From sequence record OR515477.1: a stretch of DNA of 64,000 nucleotides. One strand, 5' to 3'. Below, in pieces: positions 40,706 through 50,463 of the stretch. Made by a program: the position numbers and the translations under genes. This stretch comes from Escherichia phage Es2. Position 1 is the stretch's first letter. Every line of letters starts with the position of its first letter. Below the pieces are notes generated by a model. It searched no databases, was not told the DNA's origin, and saw nothing but the letters and a program-made list of their open reading frames with translations.

Positions 40706-43551
40706 AAAAAATACTAGATAGTGCTAGAAACTACTTAAAAAATAATAGCAGAATAAAAACTGCTAGTCTAATTTCTTTAGAATTACCTGGCTCTACTGGT
40801 ACTAGTACTGCTTTTATTTACTTAACTGACTATTTTAGAGATGTACTATATAATGGTATTTTGTACCAGGCCGGTAAAGTTAAGTCTATTAGCACACATA
40901 AACAAAATAGAGATTTATCTATTGGCAGCCTATCTTTTACTATTACAGGTACAGCGCAGGATGAAGTACTGAAATTAGTGCAGAATGGTGTATCTTTTTT
41001 AGACAGATTAGTATCAATTCACCAAGCAATTATTACAGAAGATGGTTCTATTTTATCTGTAGACCCAGACACAAATGGGCCTTTATTATACTTTAGAGGT
41101 AGAATTACTGGTGGAGGTATTAAGGATAATATTAGCACTTCGGGAGTTGGAACCTCCACAATTACTTGGAATTGTTCTAACCAATTCTATGATTTTGATA
41201 GGGTTAATGGTAGATTTACTGATGATGCTTCTCATAGAGGGCTTGAAGTTGTAGCAGGACAATTACTTCCATCTAACGGGGCTAAAAGACTTGAGTACCA
41301 AGAAGACTACGGTTTCTTTCATGCCAATAAAAGTATCTCTATTCTAGCAAAGTATCAGGTACAGGAAGAAAGATACAAACTAAAGTCTAAGAAAAAGCTA
41401 TTTGGACTATCTAGAAGTTATAGTCTTAAAAAGTATTATGAGACTGTTACTAAAGAAGTAGATATAGATTTTAACCTTGCTGCTAAGTATATACCAGTAG
41501 TTTATGGTGTACAGAAAATACCAGGAATACCTATTTTTGCGGATACGGAATTACATAATCCTAACATAGTTTATGTAGTATATGCTTTTGCTGAAGGAGA
41601 GATAGACGGTTTTCTTGACTTTTCCTTTGGGGATAACCCTATGATTTGTATGGACTCTAATGATAGCTCCGCTAGAACCTGCTTTGGTACTAAAAAAGTG
41701 GCTGGGGACACCATGCAAAGAATAGCGTCAGGAACACCTTCTAGTAGTCCTTCCGTTCATGGGCAGGAGTATAAGTATAATGATGGTAATGGTGACATAA
41801 GAATTTGGACGTATCATGGAAAACCTGACCAAACGGCTTCTGAAGTACTAGTAGATATAGCTAAAGAACGTGGGTTCTACCTTCAGAATATGAATGGCAA
41901 TGGACCGGAGTATTGGGATGCTAGGTATAAACTACTAGATACTGCATACGCAGTGGTGCGCTTCACTATTAATGAAAATAGGACTGAGATTCCTGAAGTT
42001 AGTGCTGAAATTCAAGGTAAAAAAGTAAAAGTCTATCATTCTGATGGTAGAGTAACTGCTAATAGTACTAGTTTAAATGGTATTTGGCAAACACTTGATT
42101 ACTTAACCTCTGATAGATATGGCGCTAATATTACCCTTGATCAGTTCCCTCTTCAGCAACTAATACAGGAAGCAGCTATTTTAGATATTATAGATGAATC
42201 CTATCAGGTATCTTGGCAGCCGTATTGGAGATACGTTGGGTGGACTGATCCACTAGCAGAAAATAGACAAATAGTACAAATGAATACTATTCTGGATACA
42301 TCTGAATCAGTATTTAAAAATGTGCAAGGTTTATTAGAGTCCTACGGTGGGGCTATTAACAATTTATCTGGCCAGTATAGAGTTACTGTAGAAAAATACT
42401 CTAATACTCCGCTAGAGATTAATTTTCTAGATACTTACGGTGATTTGGAGCTATCAGATACTACTGGTAGAAATAAATTCAATTCAGTTCAAGCATCTAT
42501 CGTAGATCCCGCCCTTAGTTGGAAAACTAATTCCATTACATTCTATAATTCCAAGTATAAGGAACAGGACAAGAACCTAGATAAAAAATTACAACTGTCT
42601 TTTGCTAATATTACTAATTATTATACTGCAAGAAGTTTTGCTGATAGGGAGCTTAAGAAATCCAGATACTCAAGAACACTCTCTTTCTCATTACCATATC
42701 AATTCATTGGTATTGAACCTAATGATGCTATTGCATTTACATACGACCGTTATGGGTGGGATAAGAAGTATTTCCTAGTAGACGAAGTGGAAAACTCTAG
42801 GGAAGGAAAAATAAATGTTACCCTACAGGAATATGGAGAAGATGTATTTATCAATTCTGAGCAGGTTGATAATAGCGGTAATGATATTCCTGATATTAGT
42901 AATAATGTCCTTCCTCCTAGAGACTTTAAATATACTCCTACTCCTGGCGGTTTAGTAGGCTCTATAGGTAAAAATGGTGAGTTATCTTGGCTTCCGAGTC
43001 TAACCAATAATGTAGTCTATTACTCTATCGTGCATTCCGGTCATGCTGAACCTTATATTGTGCAGCAACTAGAAACAAATCCCAACGAACGGATGATCCA
43101 AGAGATAATTGGAGAGTCTGCAGGTTTAGCAATATTTGAAATAAGGGCTGTGGATATAAACGGTAGAAGAAGTTCTCCAGTAACATTATCTATAGAACTT
43201 AACTCTGCTAAAAACCTAAGTGTAGTATCTAATTTTAGGGTAACTAATACGGCTTCTGGGGATGTAACTGAGTTTGTAGGCCCAGATGTAAAACTAGCTT
43301 GGGATAGAATACCAGAAGAAGATATAATAGAGAGTATATTCTATACTCTGGAGATCTATGATTCCCAGAATAGAATGCTAAGAAGTGTACGTATTGAAAA
43401 TCAGTATACTTATGACTATTTATTAACGTATAATAAGGCAGATTTTGCTCTTCATAACAGTGATGCTCTAGGAATCAATAGAAAACTATATTTTCGTATT
43501 AGAGCAGAAGGAGATGATGGAGAACAGTCTGTGGAGTGGGCATCCATTTAA
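40702..43551 (+). CDS. baseplate hub / tail tip protein, pb3-like
   Basis: 949 aa, same size as T5 pb3 (from memory); position. Confidence 0.65.
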   Translation: MKKILDSARNYLKNNSRIKTASLISLELPGSTGTSTAFIYLTDYFRDVLYNGILYQAGKVKSISTHKQNRDLSIGSLSFTITGTAQDEVLKLVQNGVSFLDRLVSIHQAIITEDGSILSVDPDTNGPLLYFRGRITGGGIKDNISTSGVGTSTITWNCSNQFYDFDRVNGRFTDDASHRGLEVVAGQLLPSNGAKRLEYQEDYGFFHANKSISILAKYQVQEERYKLKSKKKLFGLSRSYSLKKYYETVTKEVDIDFNLAAKYIPVVYGVQKIPGIPIFADTELHNPNIVYVVYAFAEGEIDGFLDFSFGDNPMICMDSNDSSARTCFGTKKVAGDTMQRIASGTPSSSPSVHGQEYKYNDGNGDIRIWTYHGKPDQTASEVLVDIAKERGFYLQNMNGNGPEYWDARYKLLDTAYAVVRFTINENRTEIPEVSAEIQGKKVKVYHSDGRVTANSTSLNGIWQTLDYLTSDRYGANITLDQFPLQQLIQEAAILDIIDESYQVSWQPYWRYVGWTDPLAENRQIVQMNTILDTSESVFKNVQGLLESYGGAINNLSGQYRVTVEKYSNTPLEINFLDTYGDLELSDTTGRNKFNSVQASIVDPALSWKTNSITFYNSKYKEQDKNLDKKLQLSFANITNYYTARSFADRELKKSRYSRTLSFSLPYQFIGIEPNDAIAFTYDRYGWDKKYFLVDEVENSREGKINVTLQEYGEDVFINSEQVDNSGNDIPDISNNVLPPRDFKYTPTPGGLVGSIGKNGELSWLPSLTNNVVYYSIVHSGHAEPYIVQQLETNPNERMIQEIIGESAGLAIFEIRAVDINGRRSSPVTLSIELNSAKNLSVVSNFRVTNTASGDVTEFVGPDVKLAWDRIPEEDIIESIFYTLEIYDSQNRMLRSVRIENQYTYDYLLTYNKADFALHNSDALGINRKLYFRIRAEGDDGEQSVEWASI

Positions 43552-45608
43552 TGATTTCGAATAATGCACCAGCCAAAATGGTCTTAAATAGTATAATGAC
43601 TGGATATACAATGGCATATGTCCAGCACTCTATATATACTGACTATGACGTTATTGGTAGATCTTTTTGGTTAAAGACAGAAGAAAGTATAGATAGACGT
43701 GATTATACTGGTATAGATACTTTCTTCGTAATGATTAATAATCTAACCCCTTCTACCTCCTACGGGGTTCAGGGGGCTTTCTATGACTCAATTATTGACT
43801 CAGAGTTACTGGAAGCTAAGATTGGTATCAACCTCTCTAATGAAACTAACTTTAGAACAAAGGAAAAGCCAATAATTACTGCAGCAAGATCTGAATCAGA
43901 ACCCGTCGACGTGGGTGTTGGTGCTCCAATAGTTGTTGTAGATACTACTGGGGAAGCTAGTTACTGCACTATTGAATTAAAAAGTACTGCATCAGAAGAT
44001 AGTGAATGGGTTAAGTATTATATAGGCGCATTGGGATCTACTATCAAATTTGGTGGTGTTCCGGTTGGCGACTATAAGATCAGAATATCGGGTCAAGTTA
44101 CGATGCCAGATGGTGTTACAGTTGACTCATCTGGTTATTATGAATACCCTAGCGTTTTCACTGTAGCTTATAATTTCGTACCACCTACTGCACCTACTAA
44201 CATTGCCTTTAAAGCTGCACGAATCGCAGACGGTAAGGAACGATATGATGTTAGAATAGAGTGGGACTGGGAACGTGGTGCTGGTGCTAATGTCCGTGAA
44301 TTTCTAGTCACTTATATAAACTCTGAGGAATATGCTAAGACTGGCTGGGCTAAAGCTCAAAAGATAAACGTTGGGGCTGCTAGAGCTGCAACGATCATAT
44401 CATTCCCATGGAAAGTTGAGCATACTTTTAAGGTATCATCAATTGCCTGGGGACCAAATAAGCAAGATATAACAGAATCAGCTCCTGTAACATTTATATT
44501 GAATGAAGATACTCCTCTAGACAACAGCTTTGTCAATGAGACGGGTATTGATGTTAATTATGCCTTTATTAAAGGTAGTATGAAAGATGGAGAAATCTGG
44601 AGGCAGACATTCTTAATCGACGCAGCCACTGGCGCTATTAACATTGGTCTGTTAGATGAAGAAGGAAAAGCACCTATTTCTTTTGACCCTATAAACCGTG
44701 TTGTTAACGTTGATGGGAAAGTAATTACTAGAGATATTAATGCTGCAAACTTTATTATGACTAACTTATCCGGTAAGGATAATCCAGCAATTTACACTCA
44801 AGGTAAATCTTGGGGGGATAATAACTCCGGTATTTGGATGGGCATGGATAATACCTCTGCCAAAGCTAAGTTAGACATTGGTAATGCCACACAGTGGATT
44901 CGTTATGATGGTGATGTGCTACGTATTTCTAGCGGTGTAGTAATTGGAACACCAAATGGTGACGTAGATATTGAAACTGGTTTGCAAGGCAAACAAACCG
45001 TATTTATTTATAAACTTGGTAAAAGTTTGCCAGCAAAACCATTAGAGCAAGATTATCCCCCTCCTGGTTGGTCTAAAACACCGCCTAATCGTACTGATAT
45101 GACTCAGAATATCTATGCTACTACTGGTACTTTAGATCCTGTTACTAATAGATTATTAGAGGGTACTAGCTGGTCTGATGTAGTTCAGTGGAGTGGTACT
45201 GAAGGTACTATAGGGCATGACGGACAACGTGGTCCTGGGATGTACTCCTTAGGCATACCTGGTCTTGGGGGCTGGGATGATGGACAAGCTAATTCCTTCT
45301 TCCAGAATAACTTTGGTAGTCCCCCTGTTAAATATGATGTATTAACTGAATTTAATAGTAATGCCCCACAATCAGCATTTACACGGCAATGGAATGGTTC
45401 TAGTTGGGTTAACCCTGCAATGGTTCTCCACGGAAACATGATTGTTAATGGAACAGTGACGGCAGATAAAATTGTAGCAGGAAATGCTTTCTTGTCTCAA
45501 ATTGGTGTTAATATCATCTATGATAGAAATGCTGCGTTATCCGGGAATCCTGAGGCATACTACAAGATGAAGATAGACCTAAATAGTGGGTATATCCATA
45601 TAAGGTAA
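43536..45608 (+). CDS. tail tip central fibre protein, pb4-like
   Basis: 690 aa; position after hub. Confidence 0.55.
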   Translation: MGIHLMISNNAPAKMVLNSIMTGYTMAYVQHSIYTDYDVIGRSFWLKTEESIDRRDYTGIDTFFVMINNLTPSTSYGVQGAFYDSIIDSELLEAKIGINLSNETNFRTKEKPIITAARSESEPVDVGVGAPIVVVDTTGEASYCTIELKSTASEDSEWVKYYIGALGSTIKFGGVPVGDYKIRISGQVTMPDGVTVDSSGYYEYPSVFTVAYNFVPPTAPTNIAFKAARIADGKERYDVRIEWDWERGAGANVREFLVTYINSEEYAKTGWAKAQKINVGAARAATIISFPWKVEHTFKVSSIAWGPNKQDITESAPVTFILNEDTPLDNSFVNETGIDVNYAFIKGSMKDGEIWRQTFLIDAATGAINIGLLDEEGKAPISFDPINRVVNVDGKVITRDINAANFIMTNLSGKDNPAIYTQGKSWGDNNSGIWMGMDNTSAKAKLDIGNATQWIRYDGDVLRISSGVVIGTPNGDVDIETGLQGKQTVFIYKLGKSLPAKPLEQDYPPPGWSKTPPNRTDMTQNIYATTGTLDPVTNRLLEGTSWSDVVQWSGTEGTIGHDGQRGPGMYSLGIPGLGGWDDGQANSFFQNNFGSPPVKYDVLTEFNSNAPQSAFTRQWNGSSWVNPAMVLHGNMIVNGTVTADKIVAGNAFLSQIGVNIIYDRNAALSGNPEAYYKMKIDLNSGYIHIR

Positions 45609-45614
45609 TAAATA

Positions 45615-46037
45615 ATGAGTACTGAAAATAGAGTTATAGACTTAGTAATAGATGAGAAAGTGCCTTATGGTCTACTAATGCAATTCTTAGATGTTGATGA
45701 TAGTACTTATCCCCCTACAAATACCCCTGTTAACTTAACGGGGTATTCTCTAAGGGGTACTATAAAGAATAGCCTTGATGAGACTGCGGAAACTTTAGCA
45801 TCTTTTACTACTAAAATTATTGATGCTGCTCAAGGTGCTATAGCTATAAGTTTACCCATAGAAGCGGTAGAGAATATTGGTGAAAAAGCCACCAAAGAAA
45901 GAGATAGATATAACCCTCGTCAGCGATTCGCAGGATACTATGATATAATTATGACTAGAGATGTTATAGGATCTGCAATTAGCTCCTTTCGTATAATGGA
46001 GGGTAAAGTATTTATCAGTGATGGGGTAACTAAATAA
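45615..46037 (+). CDS. tail collar protein, p132-like
   Basis: 140 aa between pb4-like and tail fibre genes. Confidence 0.45.
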
Positions 46038-48391
46038 TGGCAGTAACTACTAAAATTATCGTACAGCAGATATTAAATATTGATGATACTAAAGCTACTG
46101 CTAGTAAATTTCCTAGATATACAGTAACTCTAGGTAATTCTATTAGCTCTATTACTGCAAGTGAGTTAGTATCTTCTATTGAGGCAGCAGCTAAGTCTGC
46201 TGCAGCTGCAAAAGATTCTGAGATAGCGGCTAAAACTTCGGAGCTTAACGCTAAGAACTCTGAACAGGAAGCTGCTATTTCTGCTGGAGCTTCTGAAGCT
46301 TCTGCTACTCAGTCTGCTACCTCTGCTACTCAGTCTGCCACTTCTGCTACTAAATCTGCAGAATCAGCTGCAGCTGCAAAAACCTCTGAAACCAATGCTA
46401 AGTCTAGTGAAACAAAAGCTAAAACCTCCGAGACTAATGCAAAAACTAGTGAAACTAATGCAAAGTCTAGTGAAATCAAAGCTAAGGCCTCCGAGACTAA
46501 TGCTAAGGCTAGTGAAACTAATGCTGCTGCTTCGGCTGCAGCGGCAAAACTTAGTGAGGATAATGCAAAAATCAGTGAGACTAATGCTGCTGCATCCGCT
46601 GCGGATTCCAGTGGTTTTAGGAATGAGGCGGAAACATTCTCTACACAAGCTGCCACATCAGCTTCTGCTGCAAAAACCTCCGAAACAAAGGCTAAAACTA
46701 GCGAAACTAATGCAAAAGCTAGTGAGACTAAAGCCAAAGCTAGTGAGACTAACGCAGCTAGTTCCGCAACTTCAGCTAGTCAGTCAGTAACTACTATTCA
46801 AGGCTTAAAATCAGATGTTGAGCAGCTAAAATCAGATACTCAGGCCATTAAAAACAGTGCTGTAACAGAGACAACAGCTATAAAGGCAGATGTTGCGCAG
46901 TTAAAAACGGATACACAAGGTATTAAAGATAGCGCGGTAGCTGAGACAACAACTTTAAAAAACCAAGCTGCAACTTCTGCAACTAATGCTGCTAATTCTG
47001 CAGCAGAAGCGGGGAGACAGGCTACTGCTGCTGCTAATAGTACTAATACTGCTAAAACTGAAGCCGATCGTTCAAAAACTGAGGCTGATAGATCAGAAGC
47101 TGCTGCCAATGCTACTCCTGACATTCAGCCTCTTCCAGATGTATGGATACCGTTCAACGATTCACTGGATATGATTACGGGCTTTTCTCCATCTTATAAA
47201 AAGATTGTTATTGGTGACGATGAAATTACGATGCCGGGCGACAAGATTGTTAAATTTAATCGAGCGTCTACTGCAACGTATGTTAATAAGTCTGGCGCGT
47301 TCACAATTGCTGAAATCGATGAACCAAGATTTGAACGTGAAGGTTTGCTTATTGAGGGGCAGAGAACTAATTATCTATTAAACTCAAATAAACCGCAGTC
47401 GTGGCCTATACACTCATCACTAAATAAAGAGTTTAGTAGCGACAATTTTAACTTCAACTATGCAACAGTATCGCCGACTAATGGTATTATAGGGACAACA
47501 GGTGGCTACATGATAATCAATGTTGCCACCAGAGATAGGTTTAATCTACCTAACGGTGAAAGTTTTACTTTTTCTTGTCGTGCAAAAGGTAGCAAGTGCA
47601 GACTCAGAGCGCGTGTAGCTTACGCTGGTGATGGTGGTGCTGATGTTTTTTCGGCAGACGCATACCTTGACTTTGATTCAGTATCGGCTTCAGTAAGCGG
47701 TCAAACCAATCTTATTAGATCAAAAGTTGAACAGCGTGGAGAATGGCTTTATTTTGAAGTGACATACACGGCGGACGCTGATCGCAACGCCATAAACTGT
47801 GCTTTCTTTTTTGCTAACAAGATTAGAGAAGAACCATTTTATGAAGATTCAACGATTACGCTAGCTACATCACAAATTGAGCTTGGCTCCTGCGCATCAT
47901 CGTTTATTGTATCAGGTGGCACTCCAACCACAAGAGCAAGTGACGTTGTGACCATTCCAGCACAAAACAACCTTGCTATTAGGCCATTTACTGTTCTTTG
48001 CGAAGTAAACAAAAATTGGACTACTCCACCAAATGTAGCCCCACGTATATTTGATGTCGGTGGGCACCAGATTGATGATAATTATTTGTCACTTGGGTTT
48101 GTATCAACAGGAAAGCTGGCTGCAAATGTCGGAATGATTCAACCGCAGATTGCTGTTGATGGGGATAAGTTTGTTGTTGGTTTAAGGGCTAAATCAGACT
48201 TATCTGTTAATGCTATATTCAATGGCAATTATACAACTAACCCTAATGGTAAAGAGTTCGGAATCACGGCAACATCGTACCGATTCGGAGGGCAAACTGC
48301 GGCGGGAACTCGTCACTTATTTGGCCATATCCGCAATTTAAGAATCTGGTTTAAAGAGCTAACTGATAGACAAATGAAGGAGTATGTATGA
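46037..48391 (+). CDS. L-shaped tail fibre protein A-like, with tandem repeats and C-terminal LamG/lectin-like domain
   Basis: 784 aa; 7-aa KTSETNA-type repeats; C-terminal GTRHLFGHIRNLRIWFKELTDRQMKEY resembles a concanavalin-A-like lectin domain end motif. Confidence 0.5.
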   Translation: MAVTTKIIVQQILNIDDTKATASKFPRYTVTLGNSISSITASELVSSIEAAAKSAAAAKDSEIAAKTSELNAKNSEQEAAISAGASEASATQSATSATQSATSATKSAESAAAAKTSETNAKSSETKAKTSETNAKTSETNAKSSEIKAKASETNAKASETNAAASAAAAKLSEDNAKISETNAAASAADSSGFRNEAETFSTQAATSASAAKTSETKAKTSETNAKASETKAKASETNAASSATSASQSVTTIQGLKSDVEQLKSDTQAIKNSAVTETTAIKADVAQLKTDTQGIKDSAVAETTTLKNQAATSATNAANSAAEAGRQATAAANSTNTAKTEADRSKTEADRSEAAANATPDIQPLPDVWIPFNDSLDMITGFSPSYKKIVIGDDEITMPGDKIVKFNRASTATYVNKSGAFTIAEIDEPRFEREGLLIEGQRTNYLLNSNKPQSWPIHSSLNKEFSSDNFNFNYATVSPTNGIIGTTGGYMIINVATRDRFNLPNGESFTFSCRAKGSKCRLRARVAYAGDGGADVFSADAYLDFDSVSASVSGQTNLIRSKVEQRGEWLYFEVTYTADADRNAINCAFFFANKIREEPFYEDSTITLATSQIELGSCASSFIVSGGTPTTRASDVVTIPAQNNLAIRPFTVLCEVNKNWTTPPNVAPRIFDVGGHQIDDNYLSLGFVSTGKLAANVGMIQPQIAVDGDKFVVGLRAKSDLSVNAIFNGNYTTNPNGKEFGITATSYRFGGQTAAGTRHLFGHIRNLRIWFKELTDRQMKEYV
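46300..46770 (+). repeat. in-frame 15-nt and 21-nt tandem codon repeats within tail fibre gene
   Basis: TCTGCTACTCAGTCTGCY units then about 12 AAAACCTCTGAAACYAATGCW-like 21-mers in two blocks. Confidence 0.6.
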
Positions 48392-48666
48392 GAGATATAA
48401 TCCTAAAATTCACGGATAAATCAGCATATAAAGATTTTCTCTTAAAAATAGAGTGGGATACTAATGAAACTTTGCAAAACCAAATAATGCTTGATGAAAT
48501 TGGATATACTTATACTGAAATCTCTCCGCTAGGTGATGATGAGCCTAGATGCATCCGTAATGAGGGGTATTATGTTAATGTAAGGATTCTTGATGAATCC
48601 TTTACTTACGAATACTTTGAGCCTTTTATAGTTCAGCTAGAACAGCCTCTTAGAGAGTGGGCATAA
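48388..48666 (+). CDS. hypothetical protein (92 aa) between the fibre genes
   Basis: ORF with ATGA overlap to upstream gene. Confidence 0.35.
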   Translation: MRDIILKFTDKSAYKDFLLKIEWDTNETLQNQIMLDEIGYTYTEISPLGDDEPRCIRNEGYYVNVRILDESFTYEYFEPFIVQLEQPLREWA

Positions 48667-48675
48667 GGTTTTATA

Positions 48676-50421
48676 ATGGTAACTAAAACAGTAATTCCTA
48701 CGGATATTACAAAACTTAAAAACGAGTCACTTAATAAGAATAATAACCTGAGTGACTTAGCAGACCGTGCAGCAGCATGGCTAAATGTGCGTCCTATTGG
48801 ATCCACCCCTCTTGCGGGGGATCCTGTTGGGGACTATGATGCCGCAACTAAACGTTGGGTAGAGAATAAGATTAACACTGGTACAGTTGGACCCACTATG
48901 AATGGTGTTATGAACTACGGTGTTGGTGATTTTCACCTCCGAGATAGTCGTGCATATATTCAACCATACGAAGTCGTTTCTGACGGACAGCTTCTTAATA
49001 GGGCTGACTGGCCTGAGCTTTGGGCTTATGCTCAGATGGTTGGGCTTATAGAGGATTCCGTCTGGTTAGCGGATAAATTCCAGCGTGGTAAATACTCATC
49101 AGGAGATGGAACAACAACTTTTCGTGTTCCAGATAGGAATGGGGTACAGCAAGGGTCAATACGTGCTCTTTATGGTCGTGGTGATGGCGGTATGTCCGAC
49201 GCTAACGGTCGTGCTTTTGAATCCGCTGCACCGAATATTACAGGTGCTGTTCCTAGCTACTCAGGAGGTATGTATGCTCAGGTATTCGGTTCTGCTGCTA
49301 GAGGTGCATTCTTTTCTGATAATATGCTTTTTCCTAACGGGGATGGGGATGTCATCCCTGCAGGTAAGACACCGCTTACTGGCCGTTGTAACACGCTAAA
49401 TTTTGACGCCTCACGTTCAAGTCCAATTTACGGAGCATCAAATGATGAGATTCTTACACGAAATTTTGTAGGTGTATGGGTGATTCGTGCATCTGGTGGT
49501 TTCGTTGCAGCAAATACATCATGGAGTGTTATTAACGGCGATGCGACCAGACCGATAGACGGCACAAGAGTTGAATCAGGGAAAGTAAGCGTAGAATATA
49601 AGATTGGAACGGCTATTGAGGCGCAGGGTAATGTCTATACTGCTGCAACAATGGGTGGGGCATATTCTACCCAGCTCTCTGTTAAAAATGCCACTACGGG
49701 CAAAGAGAAAGATATCAGCGTCACAGAAGATGGTGATCTGTGGTCCGACCGCTTTAAGGCTAGATTTGGCACCCGTATGGCTTGGGCTCAGACCGGCTGG
49801 GCCTATGGCACATTTTCCCAAGCCAACCAATCCATCGGTAACGACTACAATTTCTACAGTATTCTTAGCGGCTCCCAAAGTTCAAGCACGGGCTATAAAA
49901 CTCATACCCATATTGGTCAAATCCACAATGACAACGGTTCATTTGCTGATAGCTGCTGGCATGTTGCAGGTGATGATGATAACAAATATGGTGTACGTTT
50001 AAAAATTCAGCCTAATAATAATAGTATTTATTTCTATTCTTGGTGGCCTGGTGCTTCAGCAGTCTATACTTTGCAATTAAATGCTGTATCTGATTCTCGC
50101 TTAAAGCATGATATTAAGGCTATAGACGCAACTAAGTCCATCGAGGTATTAAAAGGATTAGAATTCCAATCCTTTGTATATAATAACGATGAAAAATCTC
50201 GCGTCCGACGTGGGGTTATTGCTCAGCAAGTAGAGACTATAGAACCACTTTATGTAAAAACTAGAAGATTTTATAATAATGATGGGGTGGAGCAAGAACA
50301 GAAGGAATTAGATACGACTCCAATGCTTCTTGACACTATGCATGTCGTGCAAGAACTTATAAAACGGATTGAATCTTTGGAAGAAGAACTCAAACAATTA
50401 AAAGTACAATTAGTACAGTAA
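48676..50421 (+). CDS. tail fibre protein B-like, with phage tail collar domain and C-terminal S74 intramolecular chaperone domain
   Basis: 581 aa; N-terminal QLLNRADWPELWAY...GDGTTTFRVPD collar-type motif; C-terminal SDSRLKHDI autoproteolysis-type motif. Confidence 0.55.
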   Translation: MVTKTVIPTDITKLKNESLNKNNNLSDLADRAAAWLNVRPIGSTPLAGDPVGDYDAATKRWVENKINTGTVGPTMNGVMNYGVGDFHLRDSRAYIQPYEVVSDGQLLNRADWPELWAYAQMVGLIEDSVWLADKFQRGKYSSGDGTTTFRVPDRNGVQQGSIRALYGRGDGGMSDANGRAFESAAPNITGAVPSYSGGMYAQVFGSAARGAFFSDNMLFPNGDGDVIPAGKTPLTGRCNTLNFDASRSSPIYGASNDEILTRNFVGVWVIRASGGFVAANTSWSVINGDATRPIDGTRVESGKVSVEYKIGTAIEAQGNVYTAATMGGAYSTQLSVKNATTGKEKDISVTEDGDLWSDRFKARFGTRMAWAQTGWAYGTFSQANQSIGNDYNFYSILSGSQSSSTGYKTHTHIGQIHNDNGSFADSCWHVAGDDDNKYGVRLKIQPNNNSIYFYSWWPGASAVYTLQLNAVSDSRLKHDIKAIDATKSIEVLKGLEFQSFVYNNDEKSRVRRGVIAQQVETIEPLYVKTRRFYNNDGVEQEQKELDTTPMLLDTMHVVQELIKRIESLEEELKQLKVQLVQ

Positions 50422-50428
50422 TAAAAGA

Positions 50429-50463
50429 AAACCCCAGTGGACAAAATCCACTGGGGTTTTATT
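50429..50463. terminator. bidirectional rho-independent terminator at convergence of late and replication modules
   Basis: CCCCAGTGG-acaaaat-CCACTGGGG flanked by A-run and T-run. Confidence 0.65.

Follow-up and report, generated by a model that had tools for sequence, protein, structure and literature searches.

Several long open reading frames lie nested, on both strands, within the first part of a single long gene in the 64,000-nucleotide stretch of Escherichia phage Es2 DNA that was analysed here (the window), and the question they raise is whether any of them is a gene in its own right or whether all are by-products of the gene that contains them. Three such ORFs had been listed in the first-pass annotation, and all three were present exactly where it placed them, with lengths of 135, 94 and 131 amino acids. 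The same stretch holds a fourth ORF (46840-47124, minus strand), missing from that earlier list. All four are nested inside the 784-amino acid ORF at 46037-48391 on the plus strand, and we list them here as shadow ORFs, the reading that we favour below:

46330 to 46737, minus strand: shadow ORF of 135 amino acids, TTG start, in the antisense frame that shares third codon positions with the sense gene
46364 to 46648, minus strand: shadow ORF of 94 amino acids, TTG start, in the codon-aligned antisense frame
46395 to 46790, plus strand: shadow ORF of 131 amino acids, ATG start, in the +1 frame
46840 to 47124, minus strand: fourth shadow ORF, 94 amino acids, ATG start, in the frame of the 135-amino acid ORF

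The products had been described as rich in Ala, Leu, Val and Ser. This description fits the product of the 135-amino acid ORF, which is hydrophobic, rich in Ala/Leu/Val/Ser/Phe and helical-looking, but not the 94-amino acid product of 46364-46648, which is rich in Ser/Phe/Cys/Leu/Ile, nor the 131-amino acid product, which is rich in Leu/Lys/Gln/Arg. The 64,000-nucleotide window as a whole has 34 nested ORFs that reach 80 amino acids, 33 of them in the same three frame classes, and four of the 34 crowd into this 1.1-kb stretch. We consider it very likely that none of these open frames is a gene and that all are passive "shadow" ORFs produced by the biased composition of the sense gene.

The identity of the sense gene and of its upstream neighbour is clear from the following assignments:

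46037 to 48391, plus strand: lateral (L-shaped) tail fibre gene, LtfA type of T5-like phages, 784 amino acids (ORF, PHROG and PDB matches, synteny)
45615 to 46037, plus strand: gene for the LtfC collar protein that anchors the fibre (Pfam PF23926 LtfC, E 7e-14; phrog_34807)

The gene at 46037-48391 is the lateral tail fibre gene of a Tequintavirus. Its product is an exact match to WNL62877.1, the "tail fiber protein" of Escherichia phage Es2, and it matched the PHROG tail and tail-fibre families phrog_1419 (E 1.8e-237, over residues 140-784) and phrog_5481 (E 2e-87), as well as phrog_35823 and phrog_24159. An NCBIfam GTA_spike_fiber domain was found at residues 438-634; this domain and the phrog_1419 match are the family matches that bear on a putative distal receptor-binding part. 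Pfam returned no match to the fibre protein at E ≤ 0.1. Residues 1-218 matched residues 1-233 of PDB 8hqz chain d (E 1.3e-37), a chain of 1076 amino acids that we take, from our reading of PMC10713586, to be LtfA of phage DT57C. The N-terminal segment is homologous to the LtfC-binding N-termini of DT57C LtfA and T5 pb1, and the first ∼100 residues are near-identical across 22 T5-like loci. The order of genes, from pb4 (straight fibre; four PB4 Pfam domains within 43536-45608) through ltfC (collar) to the fibre gene, is that of annotated Tequintavirus genomes and is shared with DT57C and T5, and the gene occupies the position that lateral tail fibre genes have in the annotated genomes of Stokescottia and IrisVonRoten. 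Members of the LtfC cluster are named as collar tail proteins for L-shaped tail fibre attachment, and the stop codon of ltfC overlaps the ATG of the fibre gene. A second fibre gene (48676-50421) follows downstream, as it does in DT57C. The Es2 protein differs from DT57C LtfA in its length (784 versus 1076 amino acids), and from both DT57C LtfA and T5 pb1 in its distal 57%, which is JenP2-like, showing 91.7% DNA identity to a fibre gene of this unrelated 59.8-kb phage.

The nested ORFs fall over, or largely over, the part of this gene that encodes the fibre shaft, in which three features were distinguished:

46157 to 47107, plus strand: alpha-helical shaft coding region, residues 41-357 (AlphaFold2 single-sequence model, composition)
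46292 to 46756, plus strand: degenerate 21-nt (heptad) arrays in four blocks (TRF, 68-86% matches; repeat families D1-D4)
46812 to 46959, plus strand: 75-nt (25-amino acid) unit in two copies (TRF, 78% matches; repeat family D5)

The AlphaFold2 single-sequence model has helices at residues 41-189 and 199-357, with pLDDT mostly 70-89, and the predicted helix is broken at residues 190-198 (SSGFRNEAE). The composition of the shaft is rich in Ala/Ser/Thr/Glu/Lys/Asn. In DT57C LtfA a long helix runs from T40, compared with the predicted residue 41 here, and takes part in a three-helix coiled coil (PMC10713586); judging from that structure together with our monomer model, the Es2 shaft is probably a trimeric coiled coil. 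TRF found a 21-nt heptad period in the shaft coding region, the units lying in blocks at 46292-46360, 46387-46525 (which also shows a 63-nt super-period with 86% matches), 46544-46587 and 46681-46756. The protein consensus of the heptad is A-K-[T/A/S]-S-E-T-[N/K] and that of the 25-amino acid unit is LK[S/A]DV.QLK.DTQ.IK.SAV.ETT. The numbers of both heptad and 25-residue units vary among relatives, some of which show more copies of the 75-nt unit in the alignment. The earlier description of the stretch as repetitive is therefore confirmed by these tandem 21-nt and 75-nt units, though they are degenerate.

We propose that the open frames arise from the way in which this part of the protein is encoded. 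The stretch is the 5' third of a T5-like lateral tail fibre gene encoding a long alpha-helical shaft, and that shaft, built of degenerate heptads (A-K-x-S-E-T-N) and 25-residue units, draws on few codons (GCT, GCA, ACT, TCT, AGT, AAA, GAA, GAG and AAT), almost without Tyr, His, Leu, Ile, Val or Met and with few Gln or TCA codons. Because the set of codons and residues is so narrow, dicodons that read TAA, TAG or TGA are scarce in the +1 frame and in two antisense frames, and in the remaining two frames the contexts that yield stops occur dozens of times. Over 663 nt we counted no stops in the sense frame, 8, 10 and 5 in the three open frames, and 41 and 37 in the two closed ones. The stop-free runs extend to 187 codons in the +1 frame, 97 in the codon-aligned antisense frame and 149 in the antisense frame of the 135-amino acid ORF.

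Whether such runs are longer than expected depends on the null model. By mononucleotide shuffling, the 187-codon +1 run was never reached (P = 0 of 2000) and the 149-codon run was rare (P = 0.0035), and the 97 codons open in the codon-aligned antisense frame were not exceptional (P = 0.077). When the same protein was re-coded, with synonymous codons drawn by the phage's own codon usage, the runs were 150±44 codons (+1), 80±26 codons (frame of the 94-amino acid ORF) and 138±34 codons (frame of the 135-amino acid ORF), and the observed runs did not exceed them (P = 0.18, 0.24 and 0.54, respectively). An excess of length over the codon content of the host gene, which is a mark of a functional overlapping gene, was thus not found by re-coding. 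When the order of the codons was shuffled, these three frames still ran open for about 105, 76 and 117 codons (P = 0.018, 0.16 and 0.18). The +1 excess over this codon shuffle was gone once the order of residues was kept, and so it reflects hydrophobic residues clustered outside the repeats. Since codon shuffling and re-coding both still yield long runs, it is composition, more than repetition, that keeps the three frames open. The first-pass annotation had attributed the ORFs to codon repeats; it was correct in regarding them as by-products, but given the codon-shuffled runs the cause is mainly composition and not repetition. Mir et al. argue that long alternative-frame ORFs are commoner in bacterial genomes than codon models would lead one to expect (PMC3454372), and on account of that excess a composition null by itself cannot exclude function. 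The ORFs studied here resemble known shadow ORFs (PMC3454372) in their embedding, in their stop-poor frames and in having lengths predicted by sense codon content, and differ from shadow ORFs generally in their local concentration; their cause here is a coiled-coil shaft whose amino-acid composition is extremely biased, and not genome-wide codon usage. Since they do not code and follow from the codon bias of the fibre gene, these ORFs are an ordinary finding.

We considered next the possibility that the minus strand of the repeat region yields a cis-antisense regulatory RNA, modelled on IsrG of Salmonella, which is described as lying cis-antisense to the 5' end of STM2243, a putative phage tail fibre gene, and as inversely expressed (PMC2330248). 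This prophage precedent, over the 5' end of a tail fibre gene, is joined by the sole Rfam match that we obtained, a sub-threshold one to isrG (RF01390) that scored 27.8 bits (E 2.6e-5 to 8.3e-5) and covers 46652-46728 of the minus strand. We nevertheless judge such an RNA to be very unlikely. Its likeness to IsrG consists of a partial sequence and structure match on the minus strand of the fibre 5' region, but the score is far under the gathering score of 100 for the full model and the match covers only model positions 129-205 of 279 (77/279). Unlike the Salmonella case, no promoter was found, the minus strand having no promoter-like site in 45968-47500, and its sole terminator-like hairpin (46984-46966) is upstream of the match and not at its 3' end. 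The simplest explanation may be that the isrG model contains the antisense of a similar fibre-repeat coding sequence. A search of the literature for antisense-transcription or ribosome-profiling studies of T5 gave nothing relevant. Transcription entering from outside was addressed by one further feature:

50428 to 50460, both strands: bidirectional terminator-like hairpin of 14-15 pairs with T-runs on both strands

This hairpin separates the rightward fibre genes from a leftward gene block, and would stop antisense transcripts from reading through into the fibre genes. On this analysis it is highly improbable that the minus strand of the shaft-coding region is expressed in infection, whether as an IsrG-like cis-antisense RNA modulating the fibre or as the mRNA of a 135-amino acid peptide.

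The second possibility, that the 135-amino acid antisense ORF (46330-46737) is a genuine overlapping gene for a small hydrophobic, membrane-like protein, gains some credit from its being the longest ORF nested in the fibre gene, from its frame, which shares third positions with the sense gene, from its hydrophobic, helical-looking product, from a weak match of that product to phrog_560 (E 8.7e-6), and from the ORFs of 119-142 amino acids that four relatives (L002, L008, L009 and L004) keep at its site. We regard it as extremely unlikely. As described above, its length is that expected from the fibre protein and codon usage. Conservation was scored at 12 close relatives, in which the 135-amino acid ORF is intact at the same coordinates in two, similar in two more, and shortened or absent in eight, Stokescottia included. 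The 94-amino acid ORF at 46364-46648 is missing from L003 and L011; seven other relatives have it shortened or shifted, and L008 and L009 alone retain it, in a slightly longer form. No intact ORF with conserved start and stop was found throughout the 12 relatives, the boundaries being variable.

The pattern of substitution likewise argues against coding function in the alternative frames. Substitutions at sense codon positions 1, 2 and 3 numbered 233, 172 and 692 (63% at the third), and omega for the sense frame is about 0.12. By a simple count of single-nucleotide variants, which is not phylogeny-aware, the fraction of sense-synonymous variants that alter the alternative product was 0.219 in the frame of the 135-amino acid ORF compared with a neutral 0.255 (p = 0.42), giving no sign of purifying selection; it was 0.989 (87 of 88) compared with a neutral 0.970 in the codon-aligned antisense frame, and 1.0 (120 of 120) compared with a neutral 1.0 in the +1 frame. 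Four distinct stop-creating variants occur among the relatives in the codon-aligned antisense frame of the 94-amino acid ORF. Stop-creating single-nucleotide variants were not seen in the frame of the 135-amino acid ORF, where 40 of the 41 possible ones also alter the fibre protein. The high identity of the 135-amino acid product among relatives also appears in the same frame over an N-terminal control region. Third positions diverge more over the stretch than across the 97 N-terminal codons (57/155 versus 14/97 in L001, for example), which is the opposite of the effect of an overlapping gene.

Signals for expression and independent recognition of the ORFs were also sought. A Shine-Dalgarno motif is absent at every ORF start and two of the starts are TTG; the 135-amino acid ORF, which begins with one of these, has neither such a motif nor an antisense promoter, and is separated from the leftward genes by the strong terminator described above, so that the ribosome-binding site and promoter that mark a functional overlapping gene are both missing. 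Among the 120 rows listed of 408 matching phage records, none of the annotated ones carries an antisense or nested CDS, and the doubtful entries that were checked ("hypothetical protein", "methyltransferase") proved to be the sense-strand fibre CDS. A search of 5.8 billion protein clusters with the 135-amino acid product gave no homologue at E ≤ 0.001, and the exact sequences of all four ORF products are absent from a 15-billion-protein collection. TBLASTN with the 135-amino acid product found this same fibre gene, on its antisense strand, in 8 T5-like phage records, and nothing else. The fourth ORF (46840-47124) gave only a weak PHROG match (E 0.33). A synthetic heptad chain of the 135-amino acid product reproduced the phrog_560 match (E 2.8e-5), indicating that the match reflects periodic low complexity; shuffled and reversed versions of the product gave no match, and the synthetic chain also matched phrog_35823 and phrog_24159, as does the sense fibre. 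We entertained the idea that phrog_560 is a family of mis-annotated antisense ORFs and rejected it, as the antisense products of five other fibre loci did not match it. Proven antisense overlapping genes, for example those of EHEC and Pseudomonas aeruginosa, are reported to rest on ribosome profiling, with purifying selection as further support in P. aeruginosa (PMC9927249, PMC8850804). The 135-amino acid ORF is like those cases in being a long antisense ORF embedded in an annotated gene; it is unlike them in that conservation, selection and start signals were tested here and not found. The earlier advice against annotating the ORFs thus stands: they are of the expected lengths, unconserved, under no detectable selection, without start signals and not called as genes in the relatives sampled or in the protein collections.

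A third possibility, that the repeat array is mis-assembled with a wrong copy number, which would make artefacts of the ORFs and the repeat count alike, had been hinted at in the first-pass annotation, which called the stretch prone to mis-assembly. Repeat number does vary between relatives, and the deposited genome of SP15 has an out-of-frame duplication inside the array that splits its fibre gene. In Es2, however, no exact repeat is longer than 17 nt, a length below that of any usual read or assembly k-mer, and the sense frame is unbroken for 784 codons. Alignment of the region to phage Baret is gap-free (93.3% identity), as it is to five other phages among the matches listed (seven records, 85-92%), and an identical 784-amino acid protein is found in one NCBI genome and two other assemblies, making three independent assemblies. 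Mis-assembly is an exceedingly improbable explanation, and the concern is not supported for this window; the risk is real in some relatives, which carry exact repeats of 58-114 nt.

Finally, ribosomal frameshifting into the +1 ORF (46395-46790), giving the fibre an alternative C-terminus that is basic and rich in Leu/Lys/Arg, has next to no chance of being correct: the +1 frame is stop-free over the 187 codons noted above, and for that reason the frameshifted gene copy of SP15 is open across its junction, but a conserved slippery site or stimulatory structure was not identified, every one of the sense-synonymous variants alters the +1 product, the identity of that product is only 43-77% in 10 of the 12 relatives, where the fibre itself keeps 81-93%, and the ORF is split in L010 and L012 and split or shifted in L011.

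With passive shadow ORFs of the fibre gene as the preferred reading, the locus is of value mainly for annotation, since it shows that long spurious ORFs can be anticipated, in three particular frames, over the coiled-coil shafts of phage fibres. Such ORFs can be told apart from real overlapping genes by simple controls: re-coding of the codons, a check of conservation among relatives and the pattern of substitution by frame. Degenerate heptad repeats of this kind are not in themselves an assembly hazard, but near-perfect repeats of 58-114 nt can be. For the phages themselves, gain and loss of repeat units appears to be a natural route to variation in shaft length between relatives.

Four nested ORFs lie within the 784-aa lateral tail fibre ORF. 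The three listed in the first-pass annotation were each found exactly where that annotation had placed them, and the ORF scan added a fourth of the same kind. The features of the locus are as follows.

43536-45608, + strand: ORF for the straight fibre protein pb4, with all four pb4 Pfam domains, upstream of the fibre gene
45615-46037, + strand: ORF for the LtfC collar protein, with the LtfC collar domain (Pfam)
46037-48391, + strand: lateral tail fibre gene, 784 aa
46330-46737, - strand: nested ORF, 135 aa, TTG start (ORF scan)
46364-46648, - strand: nested ORF, 94 aa, TTG start (ORF scan)
46395-46790, + strand: nested ORF, 131 aa, ATG start (ORF scan)
46840-47124, - strand: fourth nested ORF, 94 aa (ORF scan)
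48388-48666, + strand: next gene after the fibre gene, 92-aa protein of unknown function (phrog_1361, E 7e-33)
48676-50421, + strand: second fibre gene, 581 aa, downstream of the 92-aa gene
50428-50460, both strands: strong, perfect-looking bidirectional terminator-like hairpin of 14-15 pairs, 7 of them G-C, with T-runs on each strand

The source phage is T5-like (Tequintavirus). The 784-aa protein has matches to tail and tail-fibre families in PHROG, the phages Stokescottia and IrisVonRoten annotate a lateral tail fibre protein at this position, and the exact sequence is deposited in NCBI under WNL62877.1 (‘tail fiber protein [Escherichia phage Es2]’) and also occurs in two further assemblies. 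The two fibre genes follow the branched, two-fibre arrangement described for DT57C (LtfA plus an LtfB-like protein), not that of T5, which has a single Ltf; the hairpin separates these genes from a convergent leftward dUTPase/exonuclease block. Fibre residues 1-218 match a 1076-aa chain of PDB 8hqz (E 1.3e-37), which we read as LtfA from the DT57C structure paper (PMC10713586), in which a long helix starting at T40 forms a three-helix coiled coil projecting off the tail tip. AlphaFold2, run on the single sequence of residues 1-420, gives two long helices (41-189 and 199-357; pLDDT mostly 70-89), with the N-terminus and the part past residue 360 disordered. Because of the DT57C LtfA helix and these modelled helices, the stretch flagged in the first-pass annotation (residues 89-308) is assigned as the coding region of a predicted helical shaft. 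Its 21-nt period corresponds to a heptad with the consensus A-K-x-S-E-T-N, which would be expected to pack its small residues into the core of a trimeric coiled coil.

Beyond the shaft, residues 438-634 (window 47348-47938) match the NCBIfam phage head spike fiber domain NF048003, ‘GTA_spike_fiber’ (E 1.3e-17; 64.9 bits, cut-off 36). The gene is also mosaic: its first ∼1350 nt are T5-like (85-90% identity), and the distal 57% (window 47051-48391, gene nt 1015-2355) is 91.7% identical to a tail fibre gene of JenP2, a 59.8-kb phage that, judged by its genome size, is not T5-like. This mosaicism suggests that the receptor-binding part of the fibre was exchanged, the junction falling close to where the helical shaft ends.

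Tandem Repeats Finder reported four blocks of 21-nt units within 46292-46756, one block also showing a 63-nt super-period (86% matches), and a 75-nt unit present twice at 46812-46959. The copies are degenerate (61-86% identical). The first-pass annotation had described the nested products as Ala/Leu/Val/Ser-rich, which is true of the 135-aa product only; the 94-aa product of 46364-46648 is rich in Ser/Phe/Cys/Leu/Ile and the 131-aa product in Leu/Lys/Gln/Arg. It had also attributed the open frames to codon repeats. The frames are indeed open, but a codon-composition bias of the predicted coiled-coil shaft describes their cause better than repetition does. Within 46298-46960 the sense frame is free of stops; three alternative frames contain 8, 10 and 5 of them, against 41 and 37 in the remaining two. 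The shaft consists of Ala (27%), Ser (16%) and Thr (14%) plus Lys, Glu and Asn, encoded mainly by GCT, ACT, AAA, GCA, TCT, GAA, GAG, AAT and AGT. A stop in the +1 frame requires that A or G come after a sense codon whose last two bases are TA or TG (Leu, Ile, Val, Met); one in the codon-aligned antisense frame requires sense TTA, CTA or TCA; and one in the third-position-aligned antisense frame requires NNT|CAN, NNT|TAN or NNC|TAN, hence Gln, His or Tyr. All of these contexts are rare in the shaft, and the three frames therefore stay open, whereas NNT|AAN, NNT|AGN and NNT|GAN are abundant throughout and so close the other two.

The observed stop-free runs are 187 (+1), 97 (codon-aligned antisense) and 149 codons (third-position-aligned antisense). 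Re-coding the same protein with the codon usage of the phage's structural genes gave 150±44, 80±26 and 138±34 codons (P = 0.18, 0.24 and 0.54), and shuffling codon order gave 105, 76 and 117 (P = 0.018, 0.16 and 0.18), so that only the +1 run exceeds most codon shuffles. A mononucleotide shuffle takes no account of the sense gene, and under it only two of the runs look long (187 codons, P = 0 of 2000; 149 codons, P = 0.0035; for the 97-codon run P = 0.077). The open frames are therefore due mainly to composition, and repetition is not required. Window-wide, 33 of the 34 nested ORFs of at least 80 aa within longer ORFs fall in the same three frame classes, and four of the 34 sit in this 1.1-kb stretch of the fibre gene. 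Long alternative-frame ORFs arising from codon usage have been described before (PMC3454372).

Comparison with 12 close relatives showed the nested ORFs to differ in their boundaries or to be missing. Only L002 and L009 keep the 135-aa ORF intact at identical coordinates; L008 and L004 have a similar one, and in the remaining eight, Stokescottia included, it is shortened or absent. First, second and third sense codon positions account for 233, 172 and 692 of the differences between the window and these relatives, and sense omega is ∼0.12 (distinct single-nucleotide variants). The sense product shows 81-93% identity in 10 of these 12, compared with 43-77% for the +1 and codon-aligned antisense products. 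The third-position-aligned antisense product reaches 0.71-0.87 in these 10, always below the sense product, as it also is in an N-terminal control region; its better conservation is passive. Sense-synonymous variants altered the 135-aa product at a frequency of 0.219 against 0.255 by chance (p = 0.42), with corresponding values of 0.989 against 0.970 for the 94-aa frame (46364-46648), where four variants create stops, and 1.0 against 1.0 for the +1 frame; all three fractions fit the chance expectation. Third-position divergence is greater in the stretch than in the first 97 codons of the fibre gene, and synonymous change is thus not suppressed.

No Shine-Dalgarno motif was found at the nested starts, although several real neighbouring genes have one, and no promoter-like site was found on the minus strand of 45968-47500. 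Of 120 rows listed for the 408 matching phage records, no annotated one has a nested or antisense CDS beneath the match; some rows carry repeat_region features, and ambiguously named entries, where checked, were sense-strand CDS. A search of 5.8 billion protein clusters gave no homologue of the 135-aa product at E ≤ 0.001, and none of the four nested products occurs in a 15-billion-protein collection that contains both the fibre and LtfC. We conclude with high confidence, as the first-pass annotation had advised, that the nested ORFs are artefactual and should not be annotated; the locus shows no departure from known biology.

Two database matches had to be weighed. The 135-aa product matches phrog_560, a family of unknown function (E 8.7e-6), and its shuffled and reversed versions do not. 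However, a synthetic chain of its heptads reproduces the match (E 2.8e-5) and also hits phrog_35823 and phrog_24159, both matched by the sense fibre too. The antisense products from five other fibre loci fail to match phrog_560. We therefore rejected homology and read the match as periodic low complexity. The other is a single sub-threshold Rfam match, to isrG, which covers 77 of 279 model positions on the minus strand at 46652-46728 and scores 27.8 bits where the gathering score is 100. The Salmonella sRNA IsrG lies cis-antisense to the start of a prophage tail fibre gene, the 5' end of STM2243 (PMC2330248), so that, on the simplest reading, the model probably contains the antisense of a similar fibre-repeat sequence. 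Given that no minus-strand promoter-like site was found, we consider an IsrG-like RNA at this locus very improbable.

Two further observations concern the fibre frame and its annotation. A heptanucleotide A_AAA_AAC (46957-46963, +) has the X_XXY_YYZ register relative to the fibre frame (TTA AAA AAC, Leu-Lys-Asn), and a -1 shift there would reach a stop at 46984-46986, 8 codons past the slip; it is probably a chance occurrence, since several relatives have Lys-Asp at this position. In the Salmonella phage SP_Thor (NC_103484.1, L038 1-3342) the RefSeq product names appear to be wrong: ‘rIIA protein’ is given for the pb4 homologue, ‘rIIB protein’ for that of LtfC, and ‘putative DNA N6-adenine methyltransferase’ for the lateral tail fibre.

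The suggestion that the stretch is prone to mis-assembly is not supported for the window. The longest exact repeat within 46037-47140 is 17 nt, the sense frame is intact, three assemblies carry an identical 784-aa protein, and the stretch can be aligned with no gaps to Baret (93% identity) and five further phages (seven listed records; 85-92%). Longest exact repeats in relatives reach 49-114 nt (L004, L006, L008, L009), and 96 nt in the fibre gene of SP15 (AP019559.1, L037 1900-4441). The SP15 annotation splits this gene into two overlapping CDS, each in its own frame. There, an out-of-frame tandem duplication of the repeat segment KLSEGNAKASETNAAQSAADSSGFRNEAEI terminates the first CDS; the second begins in the +1 frame, and because that frame is open its start lies upstream of the junction. 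The duplication could be an assembly error, given the 96-nt exact repeats, or a real fibre-inactivating mutation.

Repeat-unit number appears to vary naturally among relatives. Shaft length (window 46292-46960) differs among the close ones mostly in whole repeat units: compared with its place in the window, the conserved PDVWIPFNDSLD motif is shifted by -7 residues in L004, by -98 (14 heptads) in L011 and by +18 (+25-7) in L005, L007 and L010; the -13 residues of L006 do not correspond to complete 7- or 25-residue units. With a helical shaft, such variation would alter fibre length by ∼1 to 15 nm.
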